Assembly: GCA_049287205.1 (NCBI GenBank)
Contig: JBAQFJ010000001.1
Location: 842,505-906,504 of the forward strand
Length of the DNA stretch: 64,000 nt
From: Microgenomates group bacterium
GTDB taxonomy: Bacteria; Patescibacteriota; Microgenomatia; UBA10105; UBA927
Direction: 5' to 3'
The notes beneath the pieces were generated by a model. It was not told the origin of the DNA. It ran no database searches and saw nothing but the letters and a program-made list of their open reading frames with translations. The position numbers and the translations under genes are program-made. Shown piece by piece: positions 24,077 to 56,647 of this stretch (position 1 is the stretch's first letter; each line of letters opens with the position of its first letter).

Positions 24077-24658
24077 ATGTTTCAATTACCAAAACTGGCA
24101 TATTCATTTGACGCACTCGAACCTTCCATTGACCATACCACAATGGAGATACATTACAAAAAACACCATCAAGCGTATGTCGATAATCTCAATACTGTAT
24201 TGGAACGCTATCCAAACTTATCAACGCTTCCCATCCAAACACTCCTGTCCACAATATTCAACGAAGAAATGCCAGAAACAGATAAAATAAAAATAAGAAA
24301 TTTTGGTGGCGGACACGCAAATCATACATTCTTCTGGTCAATTATGGGAAATAAAAAAACTCCTGATACAGATGTAGTGAAACGAATTCTTGATTCATAT
24401 GGGTCACTGGAACACTTCAAGGAACAGTTCACCAAGTCTGCGCTTGGGCTGTTTGGAAGCGGATGGGTGTGGCTCGTAGAAAACAATGAGAAATCTCTTG
24501 AGCTATATACGTTGCCAAATCAGGATTCTCCATATCTCCTTGGACATACACCAATTCTTGGATTAGACCTCTGGGAACACGCCTATTACCTAAAATACCA
24601 GAACAAAAAAGCGGACTACATCAACAACTGGTGGAGTATCGTAACACTGTTACCTTAA
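24077..24658 (+). CDS. sodA: Fe/Mn superoxide dismutase
   Basis: LPKLAYSFDALEPSIDHTTMEIHYKKHHQAYV and DLWEHAYY motifs. Confidence 0.9.
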   Translation: MFQLPKLAYSFDALEPSIDHTTMEIHYKKHHQAYVDNLNTVLERYPNLSTLPIQTLLSTIFNEEMPETDKIKIRNFGGGHANHTFFWSIMGNKKTPDTDVVKRILDSYGSLEHFKEQFTKSALGLFGSGWVWLVENNEKSLELYTLPNQDSPYLLGHTPILGLDLWEHAYYLKYQNKKADYINNWWSIVTLLP

Positions 24659-34972: not shown

Positions 34973-35061
34973 GCGGAGGAGACAGGATTCGAACCTGCGA
35001 TGAGGTTGCCCCCAAACAGACTTTCCAGGTCTGCGCCATAAACCAACTAGGCGACTCCTCC
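34973..35061 (-). tRNA. tRNA-Ser (GGA)
   Basis: GGAGGAG acceptor, anticodon loop CUGGAAA, long variable arm, T loop UUCGAAU. Confidence 0.8.
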
Positions 35062-35066
35062 AAATA

Positions 35067-35315
35067 TTAAAATTGCGAAACTATCTTTTTCTTTTCTAAA
35101 TATCCTTTTGGATGTTTTAAAAACCACTCCCTTGTATACGCCTCTTTTTTATTCTCAAAACTTTCTATATATTTCAAAACCCACGGTCTATACGGTTTCG
35201 TCGATTTTGATTTTCCTTTGTTATGTTCCTCCAACCTTCTCTCAATATTATCTGAAACACCAATATACCATCTCTTATAGATGTCGCTTTTCAAAAAATA
35301 AACAATCCAAGCCAT
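35067..35315 (-). CDS. GIY-YIG nuclease family protein (YhbQ/UPF0213-like)
   Basis: WYIGVSDNIERRLEEHNKG matches the GIY-YIG core (Y-x-G ... R ... E-H). Confidence 0.75.
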   Translation of the reverse strand: MAWIVYFLKSDIYKRWYIGVSDNIERRLEEHNKGKSKSTKPYRPWVLKYIESFENKKEAYTREWFLKHPKGYLEKKKIVSQF

Positions 35316-35359
35316 AAACCAAAGCCGACGGCTGCCCTTCGGGCCTAGGCGACTCCTCC
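35311..35359. repeat. duplicated 5' fragment of tRNA-Ser(GGA) interrupted by a 22-nt GC hairpin
   Basis: gccataaaccaa + [agccgacggctgcccttcgggc] + ctaggcgactcctcc repeats nt 1-27 of the tRNA at 35035-35061. The GIY-YIG ATG lies inside the copy. Confidence 0.5.
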
Positions 35360-35406
35360 TTGGAAAAACTTATCGAATTATATCATTCTTGCGATATAAT
35401 CGGAGT

Positions 35407-36312
35407 ATGTCGAAAAAACATCTCGCGTTCCTCGCAATTTTTGTCGCCTCTCTTCTCTGGTCAACTTCAGGTGTTTCAGCAAAAATTCTTGTTGCCGATG
35501 TTAACCCGATTGTTATCAGCATGTATCGATTTTTTATCGCCTCGTTATGCATCCTACCGTTTTTTATCAGACAAAAACATAAACACTTTCCATGGAAACA
35601 ACTGCTCATGCCGACAATTATTGGAGGACTGAGCGCTCCATTGTTTTTTCTTGGCATCAAAACAACGCTCGCTAATTCAGGAACACTCATCTATACCGCC
35701 ACTCCTCTTGTCACCGCAATACTTGCATATTTCCTTATCCGTGAAAAAAATTCCTTGTCAAAATGGATAGGGATTCTTATCGGACTCATCGGAGTTATTC
35801 TCATAATCCTGCTCCCAACTTATGAAACAAAAACTGCTATGACGGGCAATCTTCAAGGCAATATGCTTATCACAGCGGGAATGCTTTGTTGGACTGTATA
35901 TGCAATTTTATGCCGAAAACTCAGACTGAATAATCAGGTATCTTCAATTACAACGACATCAATATATTTTTTTGTATCCACCATTCTCTGTTTTCTATTT
36001 TTAACAGTCACAAACGAACCGTTATTCCCCGCCGCACTTTTTTCATCACCAACACATCTCGGGGTACTTATCTATTTAGCAATAGGATTAACGCTCATCA
36101 CATTTTCTCTTTACCAGTGGGCTATCGGTTATCTTAGCGCCACCACTGCATCATTTAAACAATATATTGAGGTGGTGTTTGCCATTATCGTCAATGGAAT
36201 ATTTCTTGGAGAAAAAATGACCACCGGATTTCTCATTGGAGCCTCTCTTGTTGTTTTAGGTCTTATTGTCGCAACGGTCGGAAAAATGAACAGTTTAAGA
36301 AGAAATAAATAA
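35407..36312 (+). CDS. EamA/DMT-family transporter
   Basis: 10 TM helices. WSTSGVSAKILV EamA-like motif. ATG 35407 preferred over 35389. Confidence 0.75.
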   Translation: MSKKHLAFLAIFVASLLWSTSGVSAKILVADVNPIVISMYRFFIASLCILPFFIRQKHKHFPWKQLLMPTIIGGLSAPLFFLGIKTTLANSGTLIYTATPLVTAILAYFLIREKNSLSKWIGILIGLIGVILIILLPTYETKTAMTGNLQGNMLITAGMLCWTVYAILCRKLRLNNQVSSITTTSIYFFVSTILCFLFLTVTNEPLFPAALFSSPTHLGVLIYLAIGLTLITFSLYQWAIGYLSATTASFKQYIEVVFAIIVNGIFLGEKMTTGFLIGASLVVLGLIVATVGKMNSLRRNK

Positions 36313-36314
36313 CT

Positions 36315-36389
36315 TGGCGCTCCTGTGCAGAGTCGAACTGCAATTACAGCCTCCGGAGGGCCGCGTTCTATCCATTGAACTACAGAAGC
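36315..36389 (-). tRNA. tRNA-Arg (CCG)
   Basis: Acceptor GCUUCUG/CAGGAGC, anticodon loop CUCCGGA, T loop UUCGACU. CCA encoded. Confidence 0.85.
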
Positions 36390-36395
36390 AAATTT

Positions 36396-36821
36396 TTACG
36401 CTATTTTTGTGATATCCCGATCAATAACCATCGGCTGCATGGAATACATCTCAATCGAATAATTCATATCAGGAACAGGATTCATCAAAAAAATCTTTTT
36501 TCCAAGTCCATAAGCATGCCCCATCTCTAAAAATGTATTCCCACCGATATAACCTTCAATGCCTTTTTTTTCGTAGTTAAGAACGAGGATTGCGTCCGAC
36601 TCCTCAATCTTCCTGAAATGTTCCCGTATAAAATCGTACTCAATTTTTGCGCTTATCTTTACTTCATCTGCAATATCCGTTCTTGCCTCAATAGGCATTT
36701 CATCACTGAATGTATCAATTGGCACTAACACTTCATGTCCGAGAATTTCTAGTCCGTCTTTCACCGCACGCATTTCCATCCAAAATGACATACTTCCACA
36801 AATAGTAATTTTCATAATCAC
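36396..36821 (-). CDS. hypothetical protein (possible nucleoside 2-deoxyribosyltransferase-like fold)
   Basis: KITICGSMSF N-terminus typical of that Rossmann-like family. Weak. Confidence 0.3.
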   Translation of the reverse strand: MIMKITICGSMSFWMEMRAVKDGLEILGHEVLVPIDTFSDEMPIEARTDIADEVKISAKIEYDFIREHFRKIEESDAILVLNYEKKGIEGYIGGNTFLEMGHAYGLGKKIFLMNPVPDMNYSIEMYSMQPMVIDRDITKIA

Positions 36822-36885
36822 CTCTCTCCTTCGCGATCCGAATGCCGACTGCGTCCGCCGTAGTCCAGCTTAAGGCGAGCGAAGG

Positions 36886-36971
36886 CGGAGGATGCAGGAT
36901 TCGAACCTGCGCCTCCCTTTCGGGAGAACAGTTTTCGAGACTGTCGCCGTAAACCACTTGGCTAATCCTCC
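36886..36971 (-). tRNA. tRNA-Ser (CGA)
   Basis: GGAGGAU acceptor, anticodon loop CUCGAAA, long variable arm, T loop UUCGAAU. Confidence 0.85.
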
Positions 36972-36980
36972 TTGTAGCAT

Positions 36981-37008
36981 GTGCGTCGCGTCAAACGCGA
37001 CAGCCACG
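36981..37008. repeat. 28-bp palindrome-containing repeat, copy 1 (gtgcgtcgcgtcaaacgcgacagccacg)
   Basis: Exact 28/28 match to 37689-37716. Contains GTCGCG-tcaaa-CGCGAC inverted repeat. Located between tRNA-Arg(GCG) and tRNA-Ser(CGA). Confidence 0.6.
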
Positions 37009-37015
37009 TTTGACG

Positions 37016-37090
37016 TGGCGCTCTCGCACAGAATCGAACTGTGATCAGAGCTTCCGCAAAGCCCTATTCTATCCGTTGAACTACGAGAGC
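37016..37090 (-). tRNA. tRNA-Arg (GCG)
   Basis: Acceptor GCUCUCG/CGAGAGC, anticodon loop UUGCGGA, T loop UUCGAUU. CCA encoded. Confidence 0.8.
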
Positions 37091-37126
37091 TAATATGCGC
37101 ATTTTACTACGAAACGAGACCTGAGG

Positions 37127-37648
37127 CTACACACCGGGTTTTTCCAGAGGAATTTTTTTAGAAAGCCAAGATGACGCATTCTCCACCCATGACCGTTCCG
37201 GATGTTCTCGGAATGGAATATACTTTTCCAACACTTCCTGCACGCTTTTTTTATCTTGTTCGCCCAATAGAATAATAATACGCGGCCCAATCATTGGTTG
37301 CAGCAACAACAACTGCTGATCCCACTGCGCCTCAAACCAAAATGCGGCTATCTCTTCCCACCGATAATAGTGTCCCGCGCTTTCAATTCCTAAACTTGTT
37401 ACCCGATGCGCAACATCTTCCGGAGGGACAGTTGATAATACATAAATCAGAAACACAATGGAAAGCACTGCGGCAACCAACACAAATTCACGGGCAAAAA
37501 TAAGAATAACAACGAGAAGAAAAACAATCGCGCCAATATTAGTAAAATACTCTTTATTCCGCCGTTTAAACAGCCTTGAGGGAGATGTCCAGCTTATATA
37601 TACTTCTTCTTTTGGATTTTTGTTTTCGGAGGCAGACGATTGATCCAT
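37127..37648 (-). CDS. hypothetical membrane protein
   Basis: Internal ATG at 37648 (MDQSSASENK...). The track's upstream extension crosses tRNA-Ser(TGA). Two TM helices. Confidence 0.45.
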   Translation of the reverse strand: MDQSSASENKNPKEEVYISWTSPSRLFKRRNKEYFTNIGAIVFLLVVILIFAREFVLVAAVLSIVFLIYVLSTVPPEDVAHRVTSLGIESAGHYYRWEEIAAFWFEAQWDQQLLLLQPMIGPRIIILLGEQDKKSVQEVLEKYIPFREHPERSWVENASSWLSKKIPLEKPGV

Positions 37649-37688
37649 ACAGTCAGTATATACTACAAAATAAAAAAGTAGAAGTAAC

Positions 37689-37716
37689 GTGCGTCGCGTC
37701 AAACGCGACAGCCACG
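37689..37716. repeat. 28-bp palindrome-containing repeat, copy 2
   Basis: Identical to 36981-37008. Lies between the start of gene 37127-37648 and the 3' end of tRNA-Ser(TGA). Confidence 0.6.
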
Positions 37717-37727
37717 GCGGACGAAGG

Positions 37728-37809
37728 CGGAGGATACAGGGGTCGAACCTGTTAGGGATTGCTCCCACGAGTTTTCAAGACTCGCGCATTACCGTCCTGC
37801 CCACCCTCC
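37728..37809 (-). tRNA. tRNA-Ser (TGA)
   Basis: GGAGGGU acceptor, anticodon loop CUUGAAA, long variable arm, T loop UUCGACC. Confidence 0.85.
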
Positions 37810-37847
37810 AGTGGTTTTTCTTACATCTCTCTTTCACGATCTACAAG

Positions 37848-37935
37848 CGGAGGAGACAGGATTTGAACCTGCGCGAGCTATTACTAGCTCAAGGGTTTAG
37901 CAAACCCTCGCAATGGACCACTATGCGACTCCTCC
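37848..37935 (-). tRNA. tRNA-Ser (GCT)
   Basis: GGAGGAG acceptor, anticodon loop UUGCUAA, long variable arm, T loop UUCAAAU. Confidence 0.85.
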
Positions 37936-38050: not shown

Positions 38051-38431
38051 ATGCAACAACGTCATCAAATCTATCAATGTTCCGTCTGCAAAAATGTTGT
38101 AGAGATCTTGCGTCCAGGGAGTGAAATCACTGAAGTGTGTCATAAACCGCTCCTTGTCCCTACAAAAACAGATGACGTGGGACAAGAAAAACATATTCCC
38201 GTTGTAACAAAATCTGAATATGGCATTCATGTTGCAATCGGTTCTGTGCCTCATCCTATGGAAGAGACTCATTTTATTGAATGGATAGAAATCATCGCTG
38301 GTAAAAAAACCTATCGGGTATATTTATCGCCTGGCGAAAAACCGGAGGCAGATTTTCCAAAAATCGAAGAACCATTTATTGTCCGAGAGTTCTGTAATAT
38401 TCACGGACTTTGGGAAACAACTGTTGAATAA
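38051..38431 (+). CDS. dfx: desulfoferrodoxin / superoxide reductase (2Fe-SOR type)
   Basis: N-terminal desulforedoxin-like Cys cluster (YQCSVCKNV ... VCHKP). SOR domain EKHIPV ... HPM ... HFIEWIE ... EFCNIHGLW. Confidence 0.8.
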   Translation: MQQRHQIYQCSVCKNVVEILRPGSEITEVCHKPLLVPTKTDDVGQEKHIPVVTKSEYGIHVAIGSVPHPMEETHFIEWIEIIAGKKTYRVYLSPGEKPEADFPKIEEPFIVREFCNIHGLWETTVE

Positions 38432-39123: not shown

Positions 39124-39210
39124 ATTAAATTAAATGTTTATTACGAAATGCAAAACCAGCACTACTGTGGCCTGCCACGCGAAGCCCTGATGCAAAATCA
39201 AGGCGGAGTG

Positions 39211-39620
39211 TGGAGATGCCGGGGGTGAGCCCGGGTCCAAAAACGTAAATAACAAACGTCTACAAGCGTAGTCTATGTGATTTCCTACTTACCTTAGAAC
39301 ATAGACAAAAAAGTAAATAGGGTGTGACTGAAATAAACTCCGAAATCGAGCCAGTCGTCTCGATCTCTGACGCTCCAGCTATATTTTCACCCAAAAATTA
39401 CTCGCTGGAAAACAGTAAAATCCGGATGATTCCTTATGCTCGTGCGAATGCAAAAGCAGGGGAATTCTTGAAAGCTAATGCCTGTTCAAGTTGAGCAAGT
39501 TTCGCTTCAAGCTTACTGAGGGTTGTATCAGCATGTATTTTTTGATACCTGATTAACGACAATGTATCCATGTCGGCTTGCTGTTTGTCAAAGTGCATTC
39601 CTGTCGAATCGTACATCCCC
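39211..39620 (-). ncRNA. ssrA: tmRNA (SsrA)
   Basis: 5' end GGGGAUGUACGAUUCGACAGG matches the tmRNA consensus. PK1 CGACA/UGUCG + GGAUAC/GUAUC. GCU resume codon 11 nt after PK1. In-frame tag ending NSPAFAFARA-UAA. 3' CAUCUCC pairs with the 5' GGGGAUG. Directly downstream of smpB. Confidence 0.65.
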
Positions 39621-39634
39621 AAAAATGAGTATCC

Positions 39635-40078
39635 TCACTTCACCTTTCCCCGAAAATCAACCTCAAGTTCCCGTTTGATATCAGCGTTTTTCTTCAATTC
39701 CCGTTTTTCGTACTGTTTTTTCCCACGCGCAAGGCCAACTTCGAGCTTAATGTGAGGACCTTTAGTATACCAAGAAAGCGGTATGAGGGTCAATTTAGCG
39801 CTATCTAGCCTGCTTGCAAGAGAAACGAGCTCACGCTTATGCACAAGCAGCTTTCTTGTCCGTTGAGGCTCAAAACTGTCGGGATCGGCGTATGTATACG
39901 GAGAAATGGTCGCATTAATAAGATATGCTTCCCCGCCCATAATCTTGACGAATGCCCCCTCTAACTTTCCGTGTCCTAATCGAAGTGATTGCACCTCTGC
40001 ACCCACAAGAGCAACTCCGGCTTCGATCCGGTCAACAATGGTATATTCAAATGAAGCTTTTTTGTTTTGTATCAACAT
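39635..40078 (-). CDS. smpB: SsrA-binding protein
   Basis: FEYTIVDRIEAGVALVGAEVQSLR ... typical SmpB sequence. Confidence 0.9.
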   Translation of the reverse strand: MLIQNKKASFEYTIVDRIEAGVALVGAEVQSLRLGHGKLEGAFVKIMGGEAYLINATISPYTYADPDSFEPQRTRKLLVHKRELVSLASRLDSAKLTLIPLSWYTKGPHIKLEVGLARGKKQYEKRELKKNADIKRELEVDFRGKVK

Positions 40079-40082
40079 ATAC

Positions 40083-41924
40083 CTACTTAATATCTAGGCT
40101 ATACACTGTGTCATTGCCAAGAAGCAGTATTTTACCGTGTTTTTCAGAAACTGCCAAATGAGTGAATGGTATTTCACTCTCCCAGATATATTGCGACATA
40201 TACATTCCATCTTTATCTAAGACAACAACCCGCTTATTATTGTTATCCAAAACATAGATATTATTCACTTCATCACTGGTGTATATTACCAGTTGTAAAC
40301 CAAATGCAGGATCTACTCCTTTGGGATAAAATGAGTTCTCTTTTCCCTGCGTAAATCTCATAATCTTCCCGTCATTCGTACCAATCCAAACCGATCCGTC
40401 AATGACCATACTCGTACTTTTTGATAAATCAGGAAGTGTATCTGGATTTAAGTATTCTCGGATTTCAGAAAACCCTGTTTCTGTCGCAACATATTTCCAA
40501 ATTCTGCTTTTCCCAGAATCAAGCAAATATATATTCCCTCCAAAAGAAACCATCGAAGAAATAACTCCCCAATCCTCACTTTTTTTTATAACATTTTGTT
40601 TTGTTTGCTTTTGATTTATAGCAATCGCATTCACTCCTTCAGAAAGAAGCGCATATCCGGTTGCTCCGTGTACTGCAACTAGCTGCACCGTTTCATATCC
40701 TGTACCACCACCAATAATTGATCCATTTTTCCCAGGAAGCGAAAGACTATATATTGCTTTTTGTTTTGCGTCTCCTAAAAGTACAGTATCATTTTCAATT
40801 GCTATCCCTGATACCGCTCCATCACTTTTTAGAAGTCCTGCGTCGTAAAACATCTGTGGTTCACCGCTATACGCATGCATTGCAGCAATAAGTGCATCAT
40901 CAATTTGACTATATAGTTCAAGAACCCGCCGACCTTCTTTTGTTTTATTGGTCACTGCATCTTTTGCAGGTTGCAGTGTTGTTTTTGCACTCACTAATCG
41001 CTCTCTTCCTTTTACCGGATTGAGTTCCATCAGCGCCGTTCCCTCCTCAAACATCCGATTTGCCTCTGTCATAACGGAGGTAATCTGCTTATCTTGTTTT
41101 GTCGTCAACTCCTTTTGCACTCCAAATAATACGCTTATTCCGAAACAAATAAGAAGAATCATGGTAATACTTACTTTTGGATTTTTTAACCGGTGACGCC
41201 ACAAGACAACGTGTCTATGCATTGTCGACAATTTATCCTTGGAATTAGCATGAATAAATCGATGAATCTTTCCCGCACCAGTATTCAGCTGAATCCTATC
41301 CACTAATACACCCAGTCTTGACGTTTGCTTTATTGGTGTTTGCGATACTGTGCTCATCTGTTCAGAAGCAATAATCGCGTCCACTTCCAGTAATATTGCT
41401 GCACACCCCGACGAATCTGACTCCTCATTGAGCACCATTGCCAGTTTTTCTGCCGATTCAATTGCAGACGTTTGCTCTACAAGAGCAATAAGTTTACTTT
41501 CCTCAATCACATGTCCAAATGCCCCTGAAATAAGAATAACAATGTCTCCTATAGATCCCTGCCCCGATATACTTCCTTCGTGGTCAAGAAGTTTTGCGTA
41601 TTGCCCATTCCGTTTTAGAAAAACAGTTCCAGATCCGCGAACAACAATATAGAACACTGATCCGACCGGAACAACGAGCACAATAGACTGGATACCGTCA
41701 TGGACTCCTTCATTTGCTATTAGTTCAACTTCATGTAGACCAACCGGCGCTCGCTCCAACGCTCTTGTTATTTTTCCAATAGCCTGCATACCGACGGTTT
41801 GGGCAATCCCCGCGTCATCTGTTACTTCCACAATTCCATAAGCGTTGGGAGTTTTAATTGTTTGCGCCCAATGAACAGAAGAATTCGTTCCTACTACCGA
41901 CCCGATGGATGTTTGAATCTGCAT
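40083..41924 (-). CDS. multidomain membrane protein: N-terminal cytoplasmic domain (possible PPM-like), one TM helix, C-terminal beta-propeller-like repeats
   Basis: Central TM helix ITMILLICFGISVLFGV. C-terminal repeats with NIYLLD / NIYVLD (NHL/YVTN-like). Domain assignment tentative. Confidence 0.4.
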   Translation of the reverse strand: MQIQTSIGSVVGTNSSVHWAQTIKTPNAYGIVEVTDDAGIAQTVGMQAIGKITRALERAPVGLHEVELIANEGVHDGIQSIVLVVPVGSVFYIVVRGSGTVFLKRNGQYAKLLDHEGSISGQGSIGDIVILISGAFGHVIEESKLIALVEQTSAIESAEKLAMVLNEESDSSGCAAILLEVDAIIASEQMSTVSQTPIKQTSRLGVLVDRIQLNTGAGKIHRFIHANSKDKLSTMHRHVVLWRHRLKNPKVSITMILLICFGISVLFGVQKELTTKQDKQITSVMTEANRMFEEGTALMELNPVKGRERLVSAKTTLQPAKDAVTNKTKEGRRVLELYSQIDDALIAAMHAYSGEPQMFYDAGLLKSDGAVSGIAIENDTVLLGDAKQKAIYSLSLPGKNGSIIGGGTGYETVQLVAVHGATGYALLSEGVNAIAINQKQTKQNVIKKSEDWGVISSMVSFGGNIYLLDSGKSRIWKYVATETGFSEIREYLNPDTLPDLSKSTSMVIDGSVWIGTNDGKIMRFTQGKENSFYPKGVDPAFGLQLVIYTSDEVNNIYVLDNNNKRVVVLDKDGMYMSQYIWESEIPFTHLAVSEKHGKILLLGNDTVYSLDIK

Positions 41925-45145: not shown

Positions 45146-45484
45146 ATGCACCTTTTAGCACAAAAATTAACATTGCCGGGAAGTGAAATAAATCCAACTC
45201 CAATCGTAGGGCCATTGGGAGATAAAACAATTACACTTGGAGGAATTGTTTCTTCACTCTTTACCATTGCGCTTCCTCTTGCAGGTATTGGATTGTTAAT
45301 CATGATCTTAAGTGCAGGTTTTACTTTGCTTACCAGTGCAGGAGACGCAAAAAAAATGGAAAAAGGGAAACAAACACTTACCTATGGCATCGTCGGATTT
45401 TTAGTAATTTTTGTCGCGTATTGGATAACACAATTTTTTGGAACTGTATTTGGTATCACTGCGATTACCGAAATTTTCAAATAA
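45146..45484 (+). CDS. VirB2/TrbC-like pilin-like helical-hairpin membrane protein
   Basis: TM - TSAGDAKKMEKGK - TM hairpin. Same family as the six-gene array at 54.7-57.0 kb. Confidence 0.45.
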   Translation: MHLLAQKLTLPGSEINPTPIVGPLGDKTITLGGIVSSLFTIALPLAGIGLLIMILSAGFTLLTSAGDAKKMEKGKQTLTYGIVGFLVIFVAYWITQFFGTVFGITAITEIFK

Positions 45485-45487: not shown

Positions 45488-46174
45488 TTATTTTCCAAAC
45501 CTTCGCTGTCTTGTTTGATACTCTTCAATCAGCTCATCCAATTTTTCGGGTGTGAAGTCCGGCATATACCACGTCGGAAATGCAAACTCCGCATATTCTA
45601 TTTGCCAAAGTAAAAATCCCGAAAGACGCTGTTCTCCGCCGGTTCTGATGACAAATTCCGGATCTGGAATTCCTGCCGTATCCAACTTTTCTTCGAGCAT
45701 TTTTTCAGTCACAACATCCACGTCCCGCAATATATTTATTGCTCGCACTATTTCATCCCGCCCTCCATAATTTAACGCAAAAATTGTTGTAATCTTTGTG
45801 TTATTTTTTGATTGTTCCACTACGTTTCTTAATGATTCCTGAATGTCCTCAGGAAACCGAGACAGATCACCAATTACCCGAATGCGCACTCCTTTTTCCT
45901 GCAGTCGTTGCCATCGTTTGTTAATAACGTGCCGAAATATTGACATGATTCCTTTTATTTCTGCTTCTGATCTATTCCAATTCTCTGTTGAGAATGCCCA
46001 AAATGTCATATACTTCACTCCTAATTTTGCGGCGTGTTCTATAAGAGGCTCCAGCGTCTCTTCCGCTACTTTTCTGTGCCCTTCAACAGATGGAAGCCCA
46101 TGTTCATGAGCCCACCTGCGATTCCCATCCATGATAACGGCGATATGTTGCGGAACTGAAATTTTTTTATCCAT
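45488..46174 (-). CDS. uppS: undecaprenyl-diphosphate synthase (cis-isoprenyl transferase)
   Basis: HIAVIMDGNRRWA motif. ATG 46174 is 2 nt after the MVD stop. Confidence 0.9.
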   Translation of the reverse strand: MDKKISVPQHIAVIMDGNRRWAHEHGLPSVEGHRKVAEETLEPLIEHAAKLGVKYMTFWAFSTENWNRSEAEIKGIMSIFRHVINKRWQRLQEKGVRIRVIGDLSRFPEDIQESLRNVVEQSKNNTKITTIFALNYGGRDEIVRAINILRDVDVVTEKMLEEKLDTAGIPDPEFVIRTGGEQRLSGFLLWQIEYAEFAFPTWYMPDFTPEKLDELIEEYQTRQRRFGK

Positions 46175-46175
46175 A

Positions 46176-47156
46176 TTAAAATAAATGTTGCTGTATACAA
46201 TGTGTTCCACGAGCCGGAGCATTGACTATAACTGATTGTACACCAAACACATTTTTCAGTGCGCTATGTACAATTTCCTCATTTTTCTCTTCACACAGAA
46301 TGTGCACATTTGGACCGGCATCCATTGTGTAATATGCGGGCGTTCCATTTTTCCGTAACTCATAAACCGCATCCATCACACGAAGTGTTGCGTCGTTCCA
46401 GTAAAACAGTGGCGGTTTCTGCGTCATCATGACACAGTGCATAGAAATTGCATCTTCCTCAATGAGTGCTCCAAACGCGTGTATATTTTTCGTTGTGAGT
46501 GCCTCTTGCATCGCAATAATTTTCTCAGGAATTTGCTGTACACGAGTGCGCCAATTTGGACTTGTCTTTATGGCATCCATCCCTTCGGTACTTGATATTT
46601 TTTTCGTCTCTTTTGAAACAACACAAACCATATCGCACATATTCCACCATGTAGAAGGGAACAAGGATTCAGCATATGAATCAGCAGATTTTTTTCCTGC
46701 ATGCCACCAAACAAATCCATCAGGGATACTTCTTGCCGCAGAACCTGAACCGATTCGTGCGAGTATTGTCAATTCTTTTTCAGAAAGAGCTAATCCAATG
46801 GCACGAGAAGCAGCGAATGAAAGTGCTGCAAATCCAGATGCGGATGAAGCAATCCCCGTCCCTTTTGGAAATGAATTTTTTGTCACAACATGAGCGTATA
46901 TTTTTTTTCGCGCGAGTCGTCGAAGCCGGTCAAGATGATTTTTAATCCGTTTACTTTCACTTTCAGAAATTGATTCGCCAACAAACGAAATATCGTCGCG
47001 GGTAAACGCCGAGGAAAATTCCACCGTTGTCATTGTCACTGCTCCGCTTAAATTCATAGAAATTGAATCGTTCAGCGGCAGACGAAATTTACCCGATCGT
47101 TTTCCCCAATATTTGATGAATGCGATATTTGCAGGAGCTACAGCAGTTATTTTCAT
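46176..47156 (-). CDS. mvaD: diphosphomevalonate decarboxylase
   Basis: GHMP-fold, MKITAVAPANIAFIKYWGKR N-terminus typical of MVD. Confidence 0.85.
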   Translation of the reverse strand: MKITAVAPANIAFIKYWGKRSGKFRLPLNDSISMNLSGAVTMTTVEFSSAFTRDDISFVGESISESESKRIKNHLDRLRRLARKKIYAHVVTKNSFPKGTGIASSASGFAALSFAASRAIGLALSEKELTILARIGSGSAARSIPDGFVWWHAGKKSADSYAESLFPSTWWNMCDMVCVVSKETKKISSTEGMDAIKTSPNWRTRVQQIPEKIIAMQEALTTKNIHAFGALIEEDAISMHCVMMTQKPPLFYWNDATLRVMDAVYELRKNGTPAYYTMDAGPNVHILCEEKNEEIVHSALKNVFGVQSVIVNAPARGTHCIQQHLF

Positions 47157-48577
47157 ACGAGTACCCCCGCCTGACGAAGTGATATGAGAGCGCCTTCCGT
47201 AAGTATCATTGCGCCTGATGCCACTTTAAACTTCAATTCTCTGGTGTCAAAAAAATCCACCTCCTCCACCTCATCTTTACTTATAATAAAGGGGCCTTCT
47301 GATTTTGCAGTATATAGACACGCCATTTCAGTTTCATTTGTTCCTTCAACAATAAATTTTTTAAAAAATATAATCGGCATATCAACACCAAGCTCTTCCA
47401 ATAACTCACGATGCATCGCCTCTTCATTTGTCTGCCCTTTCGTCACATGACCCGCGGAAGAAATTCCCCATTTACCCGGTTCCATGTCTTTTGTATGACT
47501 TCGTTTCTGCAACAATAATTTCCCTTGTTTATTATAAATAAGTACTCCAACCGTTCGGTGCATCAATGATTTATCATGATGGCATACATACCGAGACGCA
47601 TATCTGATAACAGTATCATCTGTATCCACAACAATGAACTGTTCTGACTGGTCATCCGTCGTATCGACACGAACTCCTTCTGTATTTACCGAAACTGATA
47701 CAACTGTTCCAATTTGAGCGATTGCCTTTTCTACTGCTTCTTTTTTTTCTTTCGAAACCAGTGCAATCATACAATCTCCTCCACCCGCCCCTGATAATTT
47801 TGCTCCAAACGCACCTGCCTGTTTTGCCGCATAAATCATGCTTTCCAACTTCTCTGTGCTCACACCAAGATCACGCAAATATTCCTGATTAAAGTTCATT
47901 AATTTCCCGACTGTTTCCCAATCTTTTTTGTCCCCTGCAACTTTTGCCTGCAGCACCAATTTTCCTATTGCTTCAAAAATTCGGTTTACCAATTCCGGCT
48001 GCGCATCTTTTTTCTTAGCGATATCTTTCACAATCGACGGAGTGTCAGCTTTTATACCGCTATATCCGACTACGAGCGATACATCGTCGTTCATATCCCA
48101 TGATAATTGCTGCAGTGTATCTCCGCCTTTGGTATACAGCAATGTACCCCCATGTGTTGCGGCGGCAACATCAAATCCGGAACCAACACCCTGTATTGTT
48201 AACACCGTCTTGTACGCTTGTTCAAACAAATTTTTTTTATCAATATTCTTATGAAACGTTGTTGCTAATGCCTCAAGTGTCGCAACTGTAACCGCAGAGG
48301 ATGATCCGAATCCGTAACAATTGGAAAAATTGCTATGCGTTTTTATGTGCAAACCATGGTGGGTAATTCCAAACGCACGACACCCATCAAAAATAGCCTG
48401 ATCAACAAACCGTGTGTCTTTCACTTGTGGTGCATCAATCGTGATTTTATTATCTTGTGTCTCTTCAATGGAAACAGCAAGTCGTTCAGACACTGCAGTC
48501 ACAAGACACGGGTACCCATACACTACCGCGTGCTCTCCCATAAGCATAAGTTTTCCCGGTGCAGAAATTGTCATCAT
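47153..48577 (-). CDS. GHMP kinase (mevalonate/phosphomevalonate kinase family) fused to type-1 IPP isomerase-like Nudix domain
   Basis: N-terminal SAPGKLMLMGEHAVVYG. C-terminal domain parallels E. coli Idi (HRTVGVLIYNKQGKLLLQKRS ... PGKWGISSAGH ... NEEAMHRELLEELGV) but has Ala where the catalytic Cys aligns. Confidence 0.7.
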   Translation of the reverse strand: MMTISAPGKLMLMGEHAVVYGYPCLVTAVSERLAVSIEETQDNKITIDAPQVKDTRFVDQAIFDGCRAFGITHHGLHIKTHSNFSNCYGFGSSSAVTVATLEALATTFHKNIDKKNLFEQAYKTVLTIQGVGSGFDVAAATHGGTLLYTKGGDTLQQLSWDMNDDVSLVVGYSGIKADTPSIVKDIAKKKDAQPELVNRIFEAIGKLVLQAKVAGDKKDWETVGKLMNFNQEYLRDLGVSTEKLESMIYAAKQAGAFGAKLSGAGGGDCMIALVSKEKKEAVEKAIAQIGTVVSVSVNTEGVRVDTTDDQSEQFIVVDTDDTVIRYASRYVCHHDKSLMHRTVGVLIYNKQGKLLLQKRSHTKDMEPGKWGISSAGHVTKGQTNEEAMHRELLEELGVDMPIIFFKKFIVEGTNETEMACLYTAKSEGPFIISKDEVEEVDFFDTRELKFKVASGAMILTEGALISLRQAGVLV

Positions 48578-48578
48578 A

Positions 48579-49514
48579 TTATTTTTTTTCGAGTTTTACC
48601 CCGTCTCCCCCCAACAATACCGGTTGTGTGGCATATCCGAACTTTTTCCCGATTTCTTCCACTACACTCTGTTCTTTATGATAGCAAAGCAGAAATCCTA
48701 CGCCATCTCTTTTCCCTCCGCCACCTAAAATTTTTGTAGCACCTCCATTTTTTTCAACCGCTCGTATAAAAGGAATAACTTTTTTTCCGACTACACCCAT
48801 TCGTTCAAGCGTCTCCTCACCCTTACTCATTGCGTTTAGTAATTGTTCTTCGTTTTGATCCTTAAGAGCTATTGTGATATTTTTTGCTTGTTCTTCGTTC
48901 TGAAAAAATACGTTTCTCATTTTTCTTCTATTTTTTTCAAACCGTTTTCTTACCAGCGCCACCATATCACCTGTTGTTTCTGTTGGCCTACCAGTATTTA
49001 TCAGAAAAAAATGGTTGACTGATGATGGTATCTTTATATCCAATTGCCACATGCTCTTCAAAAATTCCAATTCCTTCCGAAACCACAATATCCCCCCCAT
49101 TGTTACAATTGTATTATCGCCGCCGGATGGATTTCCATGTTGTTTTTTTTCCGCTTCATACGCTATCTGGTTAAACAATGTGGGATTCCAAATTTTTTTC
49201 AAAAAATATGTTACTGCGGCAACGGTTGCAACGGCTGTGGCGGCGGACGATCCCAAATGAAACCCCGCCGGAATATCTGAATCAACAGTAATTCGCATAG
49301 CGGGAATGGACGAGAGATGAAAATGTTCCTTCACTTTTTGCACTGCATACAATACATATTCAGGTGATTCAGTTGAAATAACTTCCATTTTCTCAGATGC
49401 TTCGACAGCAACCCGCATACGAAGATTTATTGCGGCAAGAAGCGCAGGTGTACCATATACAACTGCATGCTCTCCCATCAAATGGATTTTTCCCGGAACG
49501 GAAACAGTAATCAT
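48579..49514 (-). CDS. mevalonate kinase-like GHMP kinase
   Basis: SVPGKIHLMGEHAVVYG. Ser/Gly-rich ATP loop. Confidence 0.75.
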   Translation of the reverse strand: MITVSVPGKIHLMGEHAVVYGTPALLAAINLRMRVAVEASEKMEVISTESPEYVLYAVQKVKEHFHLSSIPAMRITVDSDIPAGFHLGSSAATAVATVAAVTYFLKKIWNPTLFNQIAYEAEKKQHGNPSGGDNTIVTMGGILWFRKELEFLKSMWQLDIKIPSSVNHFFLINTGRPTETTGDMVALVRKRFEKNRRKMRNVFFQNEEQAKNITIALKDQNEEQLLNAMSKGEETLERMGVVGKKVIPFIRAVEKNGGATKILGGGGKRDGVGFLLCYHKEQSVVEEIGKKFGYATQPVLLGGDGVKLEKK

Positions 49515-49810
49515 ATTGGTTTTACTTTAATGCCGTATGGAATAACCCCATCTGCTGCCGCGTCAATAGTTCTGCGAACAACAGTGAATACTTTTTGGTT
49601 TGTCCTAAGTTGGTCTTTTTCCCAATCAACAACTTGCGCTGTTATTTGCATACCACCATCCAGACGCACCACTGCAAGTGGATATGGTGCCTGTTCACTA
49701 AACCCATCAGGCGGCACCCGAATCATCGTCCACGAAACAATGCGTCCCGTTTTACCGATCAGCTTTGTAAAATGTTTTTGATTACGCCAAATTTTAACAG
49801 GACTAATCAT
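49511..49810 (-). CDS. DUF35 OB-fold/Zn-ribbon protein (archaeal thiolase-HMGS complex scaffold-like)
   Basis: About 100 aa OB-fold protein between thiolase and the kinases, as in archaeal-type mevalonate clusters. Confidence 0.65.
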   Translation of the reverse strand: MISPVKIWRNQKHFTKLIGKTGRIVSWTMIRVPPDGFSEQAPYPLAVVRLDGGMQITAQVVDWEKDQLRTNQKVFTVVRRTIDAAADGVIPYGIKVKPI

Positions 49811-49814
49811 AAAA

Positions 49815-50960
49815 TTATTTTTTTAAAATATGCACTACTGCTGTTGCACCGGACCCTCCAACATTATGAGCAAGTCCCAGCCTCGCATTTTTTACCTGCC
49901 GTTTTCCACACACTCCCCTGAGTTGATTTGTAATTTCCACAATTTGTTTTACACCTGTTGCACCAATCGGATGCCCACATCCTTTCAGGCCCCCTGAGGA
50001 ATTAATAACAATATGCTCAGCAGTTCCAAGTGTGTATGCTCCTTTTTCCATGCGCATCCCCACATCACCTTTTTTTTCAAATCCCATATCTTCAATTGCT
50101 AAAATTTCCGCAATGGTAAAACAATCATGCACCTCTGCAAGATGTATATCTTTTTGTCCGACACCCGCTTGAGTAAACGCTTGGAAAGCTGCCTGTTTTG
50201 TAGCCTGAAGTTCCGTTAAATTTTTTCGTCCGGCAAGTCCCAATGTGTCTGTTGCGACGGCGGAAGCAATAATATATACGCCGGATTTTTTACTTTGGTG
50301 TTTTGTAAGAATAATTGCTGCGGCACCGTCTGTAACAGGAGAACAATCAAGAAGCTTTAAGGGATCAGCAACGCAGGAACTTTTCATTACTTGCTCTACC
50401 GTAATTGGATGCGTAAATTGTGCAAGAGCGTTTAAACTTGCATGAAAATGATTTTTAACTGCTACACTTGCGAGTTGTTGTTCTGTGGTTCCATATTTTT
50501 CCATATGACTTCTGGCAAGAATTGCATACAGCCCGGGAAATGTTGCGCCTGCCAACCGCTCTTCATTAGATCCTGCTCCCATAAGCGCGGAGCTGACAAG
50601 CTCTGGTTTATGATCTGTCATCTTCTCTACTCCTAATACACACACCGTGTCATATTGACCCGACAAAATACTCATGATACCCGCGTGCACTGCAAGACCA
50701 CCGGACGCACATGCTCCTTCCACTGTATATGCAGGAATGCCAGATAAACCTAGCTCTTCTGCAAGAAGTGCACCTAAGTGCCCCTGCATACCAAGCATTC
50801 CCGATAACATGTTTGCAACAAATAATCCTTGAATTGATTTTTTCTCTATTCCACTGTCTTTTATCGCGGCTGCAACTGCAACACTTGCCAACCATCGTGG
50901 TGATGCCGCCCACAGCTCTCCAAATTTTGTCATTCCAATTCCTGCAACAGTTATGTTCAT
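49815..50960 (-). CDS. acetyl-CoA acetyltransferase (archaeal-type thiolase)
   Basis: Thiolase fold, active-site Cys region GACASGG ... CGHPIGATG. Confidence 0.85.
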   Translation of the reverse strand: MNITVAGIGMTKFGELWAASPRWLASVAVAAAIKDSGIEKKSIQGLFVANMLSGMLGMQGHLGALLAEELGLSGIPAYTVEGACASGGLAVHAGIMSILSGQYDTVCVLGVEKMTDHKPELVSSALMGAGSNEERLAGATFPGLYAILARSHMEKYGTTEQQLASVAVKNHFHASLNALAQFTHPITVEQVMKSSCVADPLKLLDCSPVTDGAAAIILTKHQSKKSGVYIIASAVATDTLGLAGRKNLTELQATKQAAFQAFTQAGVGQKDIHLAEVHDCFTIAEILAIEDMGFEKKGDVGMRMEKGAYTLGTAEHIVINSSGGLKGCGHPIGATGVKQIVEITNQLRGVCGKRQVKNARLGLAHNVGGSGATAVVHILKK

Positions 50961-52000
50961 ACTTTGTGTGTTTGTTTTAAATACCCAAGATAATCAACGT
51001 AGGTTTTATTTGCTATTTGTTGACTCACTAACCCCCGTAGGTTTTTTCGTTTTTTTTGAATCGTTACTAATGCATCTGTTGTCTTCCAAACAAAGGCGTC
51101 GCTTCCCGCCCCTGATCCATAGGAAACCATGCAGATTTTTTTATTTGGTTTTACCACATCAAGAACCGCTGAGAGACCCATCATAGAAGAAGCAGAATAG
51201 GGATTTCCAATATGATCAACGGTAAGTGAGGCGCTAAGTTGTTCACTGGTAAACCCCAACCGTTTTGCAACCTCCCGTGGAAATTTTCCATTTGGCATAT
51301 GAAACACACAATAATCAAAATCTTTTGGCTGCAGTTTTGACTTTTGAAACAGTAGTGTCGCCGCGCCCATAACATGTGCAAAATACGCAGGTTCTCCTGT
51401 AAATCTTCCTGCATGTGATGGATATCTGATCCCGTCTCTTCGCCAAAAATCAGGTGTATCTGATGAATAAGATGTGTATGAAAGAAGTGAGGCAATTACA
51501 TTTGTACTTCCCATCAACAAGGCAGATCCCGCTGACGCTGATGTATATTCAAGTGCATCATGCGGCTTACTCTGTGCAGTATCTGCACCAATCGCCATAC
51601 CGTAGGTAATTTGTTTTGCAGACAATAACCCTGCAATCATTTGCACTCCGGCAGTGCCTGCTTTACATGCAAACTCAAGGTCTGCCGCAAGATATGACGT
51701 TCCGACTCCTAAAAGTTCACCGATAATAGTCGAGCTTGGGTTCACGGCATACGGATGACTTTCTGATCCGACAAATAACGCCTCTATTGCTGATGGTTTA
51801 CCTTTAAAATACGACAGACTTTGAAGTGCGGCCTCAAGCGCAATCGTTACCGCGTCTTCATCAACACCCGGAACTGTTTTTTCGGTTACTCCCAAGGCTC
51901 CAATAATTTCCATGGGGTTTTTCTTCCACGCAGTGGCAATATCCTCTGTGTGCACCCGATATTTGGGAATATATGTTCCATATGACACAATGCCCATCAT
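50957..52000 (-). CDS. hydroxymethylglutaryl-CoA synthase (archaeal-type)
   Basis: MGIVSYGTYIPKYRV N-terminus. HMGS/KAS-III-like fold. Confidence 0.85.
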   Translation of the reverse strand: MMGIVSYGTYIPKYRVHTEDIATAWKKNPMEIIGALGVTEKTVPGVDEDAVTIALEAALQSLSYFKGKPSAIEALFVGSESHPYAVNPSSTIIGELLGVGTSYLAADLEFACKAGTAGVQMIAGLLSAKQITYGMAIGADTAQSKPHDALEYTSASAGSALLMGSTNVIASLLSYTSYSSDTPDFWRRDGIRYPSHAGRFTGEPAYFAHVMGAATLLFQKSKLQPKDFDYCVFHMPNGKFPREVAKRLGFTSEQLSASLTVDHIGNPYSASSMMGLSAVLDVVKPNKKICMVSYGSGAGSDAFVWKTTDALVTIQKKRKNLRGLVSQQIANKTYVDYLGYLKQTHKV

Positions 52001-53148
52001 AGTTGTTTCCCCCGTGCTAATTTTTGATGTGCCCGAGCAAGTGACCCTTCTGAAAGACTTGCAAGAAGCGAAATCTCGCCTGCAAGTACGGAAGCGCCAA
52101 GAATTTCCACAAATTTATTTTTATTTTTTTCTCCGTAGCACCCAAGAATTTGCAACGCCTCTTTTTGCGCACCAAGCCCTGTTCCTCCACCCACAGTTCC
52201 CACCATAAGATCAGGCATATACACACTCATATACAACTCTTTTTTGCGTACTTCTGCCGTCGTGACTCCAATGCTACATTCTCCAACGTGTGCAATATCC
52301 TGACCTGTTGCCAAAAAAACTGCCGCAAGCACATTTGCAAATTGCGCATTATTTCCCATTGATCCGCTCATAACACTTCCCAACATGCATTTAGAAATCC
52401 AAACATCATAGAATTTTTGCGCTGTTGTTTTCAACGTTTCCTGTAATACTTCTTCAGTCAACACAACTTCTGCCCACACTTTTGCTCCTCGTCCTTCTAT
52501 AAAATTCATCCATGATGGTTTTTTGTCCGTACAATAATTTCCGGAAAGTGCAACACATGAAATATGTGTCTGTTCTTGAATATACCGAGCGATTGCTTCT
52601 GTTGCGATAGTTACCATGTTGAGTCCCATTGCGTCTTTCGTATCATATTGAAACCGAACATACCGATATTGGCCAACGCCTCGGGAAAATATCTTAGTAA
52701 GTGTTATGTGATTGGAGGTAAACGCTGCAATTTTTTGCATTGCAGCCAAATGTGTATCCAAAAAGATACTTAACCTATCATTTTCAGCAAGACTTCCCAC
52801 GTAAAATACCGGTCCGCGCGTTGCGCCGACACTATACGAATCAACAATTGCACCACCACTTTGTGCAATGGCTTTACATCCCCGATTCACTGATGCTACG
52901 AGCGCGCCCTCTGTGGTTGCAAGCGGAATATATGCGGAGTGTTTTTTTGAGGATTTAATCGTTTGATACACAATGGGACCCGCAATACCAAGCGGCACTT
53001 GTGTTACTCCAATCATATTTTCGCAATGTCTCGTTGATGCAACAAATTCATCTATTGCACCCTCACTTATAGCGGACAATGGAATCTGTAATTCATGTTC
53101 CAGTTTTCTTCGCCTAACTGCAACTGCATCGTTTTTATCAAGCGTCAT
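51997..53148 (-). CDS. hydroxymethylglutaryl-CoA reductase catalytic domain (class I-like)
   Basis: DAMGLNMV and GTVGGGT motifs. Confidence 0.85.
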   Translation of the reverse strand: MTLDKNDAVAVRRRKLEHELQIPLSAISEGAIDEFVASTRHCENMIGVTQVPLGIAGPIVYQTIKSSKKHSAYIPLATTEGALVASVNRGCKAIAQSGGAIVDSYSVGATRGPVFYVGSLAENDRLSIFLDTHLAAMQKIAAFTSNHITLTKIFSRGVGQYRYVRFQYDTKDAMGLNMVTIATEAIARYIQEQTHISCVALSGNYCTDKKPSWMNFIEGRGAKVWAEVVLTEEVLQETLKTTAQKFYDVWISKCMLGSVMSGSMGNNAQFANVLAAVFLATGQDIAHVGECSIGVTTAEVRKKELYMSVYMPDLMVGTVGGGTGLGAQKEALQILGCYGEKNKNKFVEILGASVLAGEISLLASLSEGSLARAHQKLARGKQL

Positions 53149-54633: not shown

Positions 54634-54722
54634 ATATATGCTGTAACTATACCATGGAACGAAAAACCAAGGCAATAAAGCCAAGCCTTGTGTTTACCTG
54701 CAATATTTCGTACACTTTTCCT

Positions 54723-55043
54723 ATGGAACGCATTTTCGCGCAAGATTCGGTCGACATAAAAGACATTTTTCAACCTGCAGGTTCATTTGCGACACTTGGA
54801 GATCTTGTTTCTGTCCTACTAAAGAATGCGTTCACTATTGCAGGGGTTATTTTTTTCGTTTTGTTGATTTTTGGCGGATTTACATTTATAGTATCAGCAG
54901 GTGGTGGCGATGCAAAAAAGGCAGAACAGAGCAAAAAGACCATTACAGCAGCTGCCACAGGGCTTGTTCTCATTTTTGCATCCTATTGGATCATTCAACT
55001 CATTGAAATTATTACAGGTGTACCAATTTTAAATTTGAACTAA
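54723..55043 (+). CDS. VirB2/TrbC-like pilin-like helical-hairpin protein (array member 1)
   Basis: LLIFGGFTFIVSAGGGDAKKAEQSKKTITAAATGLVLIF core. ATG 54723 preferred over track start 54654. Confidence 0.45.
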   Translation: MERIFAQDSVDIKDIFQPAGSFATLGDLVSVLLKNAFTIAGVIFFVLLIFGGFTFIVSAGGGDAKKAEQSKKTITAAATGLVLIFASYWIIQLIEIITGVPILNLN

Positions 55044-55044
55044 T

Positions 55045-55419: not shown

Positions 55420-55420
55420 T

Positions 55421-55795: not shown

Positions 55796-55800
55796 TTTCT

Positions 55801-56142: not shown

Positions 56143-56289
56143 AAAGGCGGATTGATTGTAGATTTGCCACACGTACCGTATAATTAACATAGTATAAATT
56201 ATCTTCCTCAGCCCATGAAGGTTGTTGGAAGATTCAAGAAATTGATTTACTCGTACTAACTCGTAAGCAATTTCTAGAGGAGGTGACGT

Positions 56290-56622: not shown

Positions 56623-56647
56623 TTTTTTGAAAATATATTGTATATTC

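Follow-up and report, generated by a model that had tools for sequence, protein, structure and literature searches.

The minus strand of the 64,000-nt window analysed here (the whole stretch of contig JBAQFJ010000001.1 from a Microgenomates group bacterium, positions 842,505 to 906,504) carries a gene for transfer-messenger RNA (tmRNA; ssrA, 39620→39211) directly downstream of smpB, the gene for the SsrA-binding protein. Comparison with related sequences makes it very probable that this is a functional ssrA of the Candidatus Gottesmanbacteria, in which two features have changed in a lineage-specific manner, namely the elbow formed by the D-loop and T-loop, and the proteolysis tag, which is long and built in three parts, and that the interior of the window gene is one of at least two exchangeable forms that circulate in the clade.

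The gene is matched over the full length of the Rfam tmRNA model (RF00023, model positions 1-374) at 39620..39208 of the minus strand, scoring 103.4 bits (gathering score 47, E 2.6e-39), and spans 410 nt as a one-piece tmRNA from G1 to the discriminator A. The RNA strand opens with GGGGAUGUACGAUUCGAC at 39620 and closes with GGAC CCGGG CUCACC CCCGG CAUCUCC A at 39211; the bases after the discriminator are CAC, and CCA is thus not encoded. On the same strand, smpB (40078..39635; PF01668, 150.8 bits) encodes a full-length protein of 147 amino acids that includes the C-terminal tail, residues 3-146 of which align to the Aquifex SmpB 1p6v (E 4e-32). It ends 14 nt before the 5' end of the tmRNA, and the two genes are most likely co-transcribed. 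The SmpB homologues that have a source name belong to Candidatus Gottesmanbacteria or Microgenomates, a lineage of the Patescibacteria, or candidate phyla radiation (CPR). A preliminary description of this DNA had reported a tmRNA adjoining smpB and had suggested a CPR origin, and both are upheld by the RF00023 score, the full-length SmpB 14 nt upstream and the names of its homologues. Its coordinates also stand, the lower bound of 39211 being exactly the discriminator A; the strand, which it had left out, is minus. It had proposed searches with Rfam and ARAGORN, and had named as contrary outcomes the lack of a model match and the lack of conservation of the tag frame. The Rfam search gave the full-model match above the gathering score, and the tag frame is kept in 67 of 67 sequences. 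ARAGORN called seven tRNAs over the window and no tmRNA. The same program detects 7 of 60 clade tmRNAs and misses the other 53, and finds none in the four close loci (L001-L004; compared loci are designated by L numbers throughout), so that its blank result here reflects a limit of the tool and is not evidence against the gene. Because ARAGORN is common in annotation pipelines, such genomes would wrongly appear to lack tmRNA, although Infernal with the Rfam model finds the clade tmRNA easily.

Relatives were gathered in three ways. Scanning genome contigs with the single window SmpB yielded only the four close loci L001-L004, a metagenome scan with an alignment of 72 SmpBs added 80 more (SmpB 62-93% identical), and exact-protein look-ups gave a further four. 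An nhmmer profile located a full-length tmRNA directly 3' of smpB in about 72 of the related loci, and the comparisons below use an alignment (A3) of 67 distinct tmRNA sequences, comprising the window and 66 relatives (Gottesmanbacteria, CPR). Base pairing was scored as the fraction of alignment cells forming a standard pair, and compared with 500 shuffles and with slid partners. Interior forms of the gene were compared by tag length and by the breakpoints in one all-against-all BLAST run, and 17 tmRNAs of other phyla found in the same loci served as a control set for the elbow. Window coordinates equal 39621 minus the nucleotide position in the tmRNA.

The window gene is a standard one-piece tmRNA with four pseudoknots. 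The 5' strand of the acceptor stem (GGGGAUG, nt 1-7, 39614..39620) forms seven of seven pairs with nt 403-409, including G3·U407, and the 3' strand (CAUCUCC, 39212-39218), read from the sequence, is followed by the discriminator A410 (39211; together 39211..39218), so that the alanine identity elements G3·U and A73 (the discriminator A) are both present. This stem is fully paired in all correctly parsed clade sequences, changing for instance from GGGGAUG/CAUCUCC to GGGGACG/CGUCUCC; the ‘unpaired’ acceptor cells in the pairing test stem from a column shift in 13 alignment rows. The T stem (CCGGG/CCCGG, within the T arm at nt 387-402, 39219..39234) is 100% paired in the 67 sequences, with compensatory changes at four of its five pairs and variants that include CCGGG/CCCGG, CCGAG/CUCGG, GAGAG/CUCUC, GAGGG/CCCUC and CCCGG/CCGGG. 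Helix 2 joins a 5' strand (nt 16-45, 39576..39605) to a 3' strand (nt 354-386, 39235..39267) that ends in GGAC and has a nearly invariant core, GACUACGCUUGUAGA; pairing ranges from 79 to 99.5% over its three sections, and 15 of 18 pairs show compensatory changes. Pseudoknot 1 (nt 46-77, 39544..39575; stem 1 46-50/60-64, stem 2 53-57/73-77) has 90-100% and 93% of cells paired in its two stems, and compensatory changes, such as A-U to G-C, in 30 of the 67 sequences. Combined, the acceptor stem, T stem, helix 2 and pseudoknot 1 have 91.3% of cells paired, compared with 77.4% in the shuffles (none of 500 reaching the observed value) and 37-48% with slid partners.

The remaining helices show the same signal in varying strength, pseudoknots 2-4 and helix 5 together being 74% paired, a value reached by none of the 500 shuffles. 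The window sequence allows each of pseudoknots 2-4 to be drawn. Pairing in pseudoknot 2 (nt 193-246, 39375..39428) reaches 96.7% in the outer stem and 100% in the second, and compensatory changes occur in both. Pseudoknot 3 (nt 254-295, 39326..39367) comprises, in the window sequence, a 9-bp hairpin and a stem from its loop to downstream sequence; across the clade the second stem is 88.9% paired and the first only 45%, because a second structural form exists in the clade. The covarying stems of pseudoknot 4 (nt 300-350, 39271..39321) are 70.5% and 73.9% paired, with many compensatory changes. Helix 5 (approximately nt 156-192, 39429..39465), which in the minimum free energy (MFE) fold encloses the last tag codons and the stop codon, covaries weakly (62-67% of cells paired), as it does in published comparative analyses. 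Two otherwise ordinary clade tmRNAs carry insertions, one of 24 nt within pseudoknot 1 (L135, A3 columns 74-97), and the other of 19 nt, forming a GC-rich hairpin in helix 2 (3' strand; L143, A3 columns 491-509).

The first of the two lineage-specific changes lies in the elbow. The T arm of the window, CCGGG-CUCACC-CCCGG, has a loop of 6 nt (nt 392-397, 39224-39229) compared with the canonical 7-nt UUCRANY (T54, Ψ55, C56, A58), and the D-loop analogue UACGAUUC (nt 8-15, 39606..39613) falls 2 nt short of the Rfam consensus, leaving a gap opposite ‘cuGGaUUCGAC’, and has one G in place of GG. The preliminary description had called the T-loop unusual, rightly so, and the 5' end and pseudoknot 1 textbook, which is true of pseudoknot 1, both stems of which covary, but not of the shortened D-loop. 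Loops of 6 nt (CUCACC, CUCACU, CUCAUU, UUCAAC, UUCACC, UUCAAU) occur in 18 contigs from at least 12 datasets, and all other T-loops in the clade have 7 nt, mostly CUCAnnA. Only U55, C56 and R57 are constant in the clade; position 54 is usually C but may be U, and in one case is G, and position 58 can be A, U or C. Canonical U54 and A58 occur together in none of the 7-nt loops, and the D-loop GG is absent from every member. By contrast, the control tmRNAs all (17/17) combine a UUCRAYU T-loop with a D-loop GG. These include the tmRNA of the CPR group Uhrbacteria (L036), indicating that the altered elbow is not a general CPR trait; a tmRNA from Wildermuthbacteria (L029), parsed by eye, has CUCAUC and a single G. 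The seven tRNAs of the window have the canonical UUCRANN T-loop and D-loop GG, and the change is thus specific to tmRNA. Covariation between D-loop and T-loop, inspected by eye, gave no clear pairing rule. The usual T54·A58 and G18·Ψ55 contacts would be lost in such an elbow, which may instead be held by SmpB together with a single contact of the G·C56 type. The tmRNA T-loop has been described as ‘highly conserved’, with two single-lineage exceptions (PMC1168896).

The T-loop, one base short, and the blank ARAGORN result might also be taken as signs of a sequencing or assembly artefact, or of a decaying pseudogene. Both readings are highly improbable, and are excluded by the comparative data: the 6-nt loop recurs in contigs of at least 12 independent datasets, the T stem is fully paired with compensatory changes, all the helices covary, the tag frame is intact and under purifying selection, and smpB is intact.

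The second change concerns the tag. A GCU resume codon (nt 89-91, 39530-39532), preceded by U-5 and A-4, lies 11 nt past pseudoknot 1 and opens a frame of 32 codons (nt 89-184, 39437..39532) that reads ADTTLSKLEAKLAQLEQALAFKNSPAFAFARA and ends at a UAA stop codon (nt 185-187, 39434..39436), unpaired within the predicted helix 5. Across the 67 sequences, GCU, A-4 and U-1 are invariant and U-5 nearly so, matching the context of E. coli, in which U85 and A86 precede the resume codon (PMC1168896). The frame is open in all 67, with lengths of 18-40 codons, and the stop is UAA in 65 and UGA in two; in the seven relatives that it detects, ARAGORN picks the homologous resume codon and the same peptides. 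Among 26 equal-length tag pairs, which are phylogenetically non-independent and all point in the same direction, the ratio of nonsynonymous to synonymous differences (pN/pS) is 0.30, with 74, 62 and 158 differences at codon positions 1, 2 and 3, and in comparisons of the window with L081, L001 and L085 it is 0-0.2. The open frame, the low pN/pS and the third-position bias together confirm the 32-residue tag as a translated frame. The preliminary description had located the GCU at this distance, had given the 32-residue tag as a possibility, and had suggested alignment with related tmRNAs as a way to fix the resume codon; the invariant GCU and A-4 and the frame open throughout settle both in its favour. 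The program-made list of open reading frames (ORFs) contains a TTG-initiated ORF of 62 amino acids in the tag frame (39434-39622, minus strand), raising the alternative that the open frame belongs to a small protein gene rather than a tag. Its supposed start, however, lies inside the acceptor stem of an RNA scoring 103 bits, conservation upstream of the GCU tracks the pairing of pseudoknot 1 and helix 2 and not codons, and codon-type conservation begins at the invariant GCU. A small protein is accordingly even less credible than an artefact or a pseudogene, and is likewise excluded by the comparisons.

The window tag begins with AD, continues with leucines at positions 5, 8, 12, 15 and 19, passes through K-N-S-P and ends in AFAFARA. 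Bulky hydrophobic residues recur with a 3.5-residue (heptad) periodicity, significant against shuffles for the window tag (p = 0.007) and at p < 0.05 for 23 of 45 long tags, and AlphaFold2, run on the single sequence, predicts a helix at residues 3-22 (pLDDT, its per-residue confidence score, ~75). The layout would be that of a Leu-heptad helix of about 20 residues, followed by a basic or Pro hinge and an aromatic/Ala C-terminus. The AFAFARA end may be the degron proper, and the helix may serve as a spacer, or as a docking element for an adaptor or for an AAA+ protease (Lon-like, FtsH or ClpX). At the C-terminus, all 67 tags have A, L or Y at position -3 and 55 have A at position -1; the residue at -2 varies freely (T, A, R, N, Y, V and others). 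The tags have 27 distinct C-terminal triplets, of which ‘ARA’ is seen 8 times and, given the general pattern of [A/L/Y]-x-(mostly A), is one local variant. Tags of other phyla in the same data set have 9-13 residues and end in LAA, VAA or FAA; the earlier remark that an ARA terminus is unusual holds.

A long tag with an aromatic/Ala end in a reduced genome recalls the Lon-directed tags of the Mollicutes, and by this analogy the lineage may lack ClpXP and have evolved its tag as a Lon degron. The length (32 residues compared with 27 in Mycoplasma pneumoniae, PMC8403727), the likeness of the end to the ...ANYAFA of Mesoplasma florum, which is specifically recognised by Mf-Lon (PMC9097571), and the reduced genome are consistent with this possibility, as are two relatives, the only ones of the 67, whose tags have exactly ...FAFA or ...YAFA as their end. 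The terminus of the window tag, however, is ARA and not FA, and motifs of the [FY]A[FY]A type occur in only 30 of the 67 clade tags, as well as in canonical tags of the ClpXP type such as ADDYAYAVAA. A Lon-type degron is thus regarded as rather doubtful. The preliminary description had taken the unusual terminus and T-loop as a possible sign of a divergent CPR proteolysis-tag system, and had advised a look at the ClpXP/Lon adaptor repertoire. The 64-kb window contains no AAA+ protease gene (no ORF with a Walker-A motif), and a literature search on CPR with ClpX, Lon and FtsH was uninformative.

Under the favoured reading of a functional gene, the conserved anatomy suggests an unaltered course of events. 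RNase P would cut at G1, CCA would be added after the discriminator A, alanyl-tRNA synthetase would charge the RNA through G3·U and A73, and SmpB and EF-Tu would deliver it to stalled ribosomes. Translation would then resume at the GCU (39532-39530), set by U-5 and A-4, and stop at the UAA, the rescued peptide gaining Ala plus 32 residues. The basic mechanism of trans-translation is unchanged by the present findings.

The third element of this reading is the mosaic interior of the gene. Identity of the tmRNA tracks that of SmpB only loosely (r = 0.29 over 2211 pairs; 0.10-0.33 by region), and the interior of the clade tmRNA (tag, helix 5, pseudoknots 2-4 and often helix 2, in some cases all but the tRNA-like ends) is exchanged, to the point of being unalignable, between genomes with 90-99% identical flanks. 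For example, L118, L122 and L126 share DNA that is at least 99.4% identical over 0.7-1 kb upstream, whereas the tmRNAs of L118 and L122 are 72% identical and that of L126 is alignable to neither. L126 and L122 are 99.2% identical for 2212 nt, up to tmRNA nt 19, beyond which 670 nt and 472 nt are unrelated before 98.6% identity resumes to the contig end. L126 retains 19 nt from the 5' end of the other form, after which come an orphan ORF of 74 amino acids (L126:2245-2466) and a complete, different tmRNA; the ORF has no homologue in any locus compared, and is thus not a conserved passenger. A similar breakdown of tmRNA identity is seen between L125 and L132 (98.8% identical upstream) and between L157 and L154 (92%), and in L104 compared with L113, L139 with L113, and L150 with L136 the difference is confined to the interior.

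Two such forms are found around the window. The 32-residue tag form is shared by the window, L081, L001 and L161 (SmpB 90-95% identical), and a form with a 25-residue tag, ADNEELEAAQYAPAWAARAAYAYAA in most of them, is present in L082, L084, L162, L163 and L164 (SmpB 82-88%). Helix 2 and pseudoknots 2-4 of the 25-residue form differ from those of the 32-residue form; the tRNA-like domain is common to both, with UACG or UAUG in the D-loop and the same type of 6-nt T-loop. Compared with loci of the 25-residue form, the window DNA is 72-76% similar over 2.7 kb upstream and as far as approximately tmRNA nt 95, loses similarity for about 285 nt (39241-39525), and regains it at 97-100% for the last 31 nt; in L162 similarity to the window continues 2 kb downstream at 70%. 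Neither an integrase nor repeats were observed with the exchanged interiors in the clade. The simplest reading of these sequence patterns is homologous exchange in which the conserved gene ends serve as anchors, the window carrying one of the circulating forms. A further-reaching proposal is that of a modular, recombining tmRNA, in which a tRNA-like domain co-evolving with SmpB (no D-loop GG, C54, T-loop of 6-7 nt) joins cassettes encoding tags of 18-40 residues, the helix acts as a docking or self-association module, and selection on the tag or its reader maintains the exchange, the pressure being protease or adaptor specificity, or phage conflict, rather than neutral recombination. This is considered unlikely. 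If selection does drive the exchange, proteolysis tags would be under a pressure that has gone unrecognised.

The elbow and the tag are also open to a more modest explanation, and neutral drift is a serious alternative for both. In this account the tmRNA is an ordinary one in a reduced genome: SmpB makes the elbow contacts dispensable, the tag grew by neutral in-frame expansion, its tail is merely unstructured or hydrophobic, and neither the helix nor the ARA end has a specific role. Position 54 of the T-loop switches between C and U, and position 58 between A, U and C, among near relatives, as drift would allow. The 27 C-terminal triplets and the range of tag lengths fit equally, and short-tag and long-tag forms swap beside SmpBs that are 82-99% identical, so that both evidently work. 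On the other hand, pN/pS is low across the tag with its helical part included, the heptad spacing recurs in tag subfamilies of differing sequence, and U55-C56-R57 and the [A/L/Y]-x-A end are kept throughout. Drift is therefore seen as plausible but, on this evidence, somewhat improbable.

Several observations weigh against a functional gene with a specifically evolved elbow and tag, quite apart from drift. Contacts between the T-loop and D-loop were reported to be needed for SmpB binding in E. coli, according to the citation of Barends 2002 in PMC3968760; the clade has lost the U54/A58 and GG contacts needed there, and the argument for function is thus one from conservation. The Kyte-Doolittle hydrophobic moment of the tag is no higher than in shuffles (p ~0.3), consistent with drift, and only the heptad spacing of bulky residues, not strong amphipathicity, is claimed for this reason. 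The helix itself is a soft claim, the single-sequence AlphaFold model being of moderate confidence. The pairs behind the pN/pS value are, as noted, not independent, and the constraint on the sequence may lie partly at the RNA level: three hairpins are predicted for the mRNA-like domain (39429-39543, minus strand), whose MFE fold is more stable than that of shuffles (z = -3.0). A scan for promoters and terminators gave counts no higher than chance, with no clear terminator after the gene, and a survey of the clade loci for ClpX, ClpP, Lon or FtsH motifs near smpB found none. With respect to the RNA fold, it may be added that one predicted hairpin spans the segment coding for the helix and joins CUUGAA (Leu-Glu codons) to UUCAAG (Phe-Lys codons), suggesting that the peptide repeat and the RNA structure may constrain each other.

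Around smpB-ssrA, the window contains six tRNA genes downstream of ssrA (34973-37935, minus strand: Ser-gga, Arg-ccg, Ser-cga, Arg-gcg, Ser-tga, Ser-gct). Many relatives (L001, L002, L086, L089, L093, L095, L111 and others) likewise have tRNA-Ser(gct) and tRNA-Ser(tga) after ssrA, and the order smpB-ssrA-(comF-like)-tRNA-Ser is thus conserved. The tmRNA and smpB lie on the same strand in all loci other than L004 (L004:3458-3878; UBA10118, SmpB 56% identical), in which the tmRNA is on the opposite strand and convergent with smpB. Three loci, L001 (CAZSTG010000004.1), L002 (CAZKLT010000002.1) and L010 (CAZSLA010000004.1), come from public MAG records titled ‘uncultured Gammaproteobacteria bacterium’. 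In L001 and L002, however, smpB-ssrA is as in Gottesmanbacteria, with SmpB sharing 90% and 63% identity with that of the window and with the same non-canonical tmRNA, and these labels are therefore probably wrong; L010 has a canonical tmRNA beside a tRNA-Ser cluster, and its label is less clearly so. Directly upstream of smpB lies an ORF of 613 amino acids (40083-41924, minus strand) with only a weak NHL-repeat match, its position being conserved in L161-L164 as ORFs of 609-611 amino acids without Pfam annotation. A desulfoferrodoxin-type superoxide reductase gene (38051-38431, plus strand), syntenic in L162, and an Fe/Mn superoxide dismutase gene (24077-24658, plus strand) occur in the same window. 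A mevalonate-pathway run (45488-53148, minus strand) encodes HMG-CoA reductase, an HMG-CoA synthase-like protein, thiolase, two GHMP kinases, one of them fused to a NUDIX domain, diphosphomevalonate decarboxylase and undecaprenyl-diphosphate synthase. Six tandem paralogues of a small pilin (T4SS_pilin, PF18895) lie at 54654-57050 (plus strand), with a seventh 9 kb away (45146-45484, plus strand). The array is followed by ORFs of 471 amino acids (57089-58504, plus strand) and 1245 amino acids (58509-62246, minus strand), neither with a Pfam match.

The usual view of tmRNA is that of a conserved housekeeping RNA inherited vertically, and CPR ribosomes are already known as unusual. What stands out here is a clade-wide non-canonical elbow, a long, predicted-helical tag and an exchanged tag-coding interior on an otherwise standard tmRNA; in the literature consulted, a search on tmRNA of the CPR (its T-loop, tags that are long or helical, mosaic ssrA genes) found nothing relevant. 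The whole clade appears to work without the D-loop GG and T54/A58, features treated as near-universal, and thus offers a natural experiment on how a tRNA-like elbow can be built, as well as a target for structural work on SmpB and the tRNA-like domain in CPR.

Compared with known systems, the window gene resembles the E. coli SsrA type in its G3·U pair, discriminator A, 5-bp T stem, long helix 2, pseudoknot 1, U-5/A-4 context and GCN resume codon, in a tag ORF that stops at UAA within helix 5, in pseudoknots 2-4 and in its partner smpB. It differs from that type in its D-loop without GG, in its 6-nt CUCACC T-loop with C54 and no A58, in a tag of 32 codons rather than about 10 that ends in ARA rather than LAA, in the absence of an encoded CCA, and in being invisible to ARAGORN. 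With the Lon-directed tags of the Mollicutes (Mesoplasma florum, AANKNEENTNEVPTFMLNAGQANYAFA; Mycoplasma pneumoniae, 27 residues) it shares a long tag, a reduced genome and an aromatic/Ala-rich C-terminus, but no sequence homology, the Mollicutes tags being Asn-rich with a polar middle part, whereas the window tag has a Leu-heptad helix and an ARA end. Natural T-loop exceptions are also known from the mitochondrion of Reclinomonas americana (UU to GG) and from Caulobacter crescentus (U342 to G) (PMC1168896). In each of those the tmRNA is reduced or in two pieces and the base changes are confined to a single lineage, unlike the present case, in which a whole clade of standard one-piece tmRNAs alters position 54 and loses A58 and GG, and one sublineage, that of the window, has the 6-nt loop. 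Finally, genomic islands and prophages integrate at ssrA (‘Traffic at the tmRNA gene’, Williams 2003; Dehalococcoides vcr islands, PMC3146451), and in both situations ssrA is a site of repeated DNA exchange. Island integration involves a crossover in the 3' end of ssrA, the incoming DNA supplying an integrase and a new 3' fragment in place of the old, whereas the clade described here keeps the T-arm 3' end, and often the 5' end, and changes 0.3-0.7 kb of the interior.

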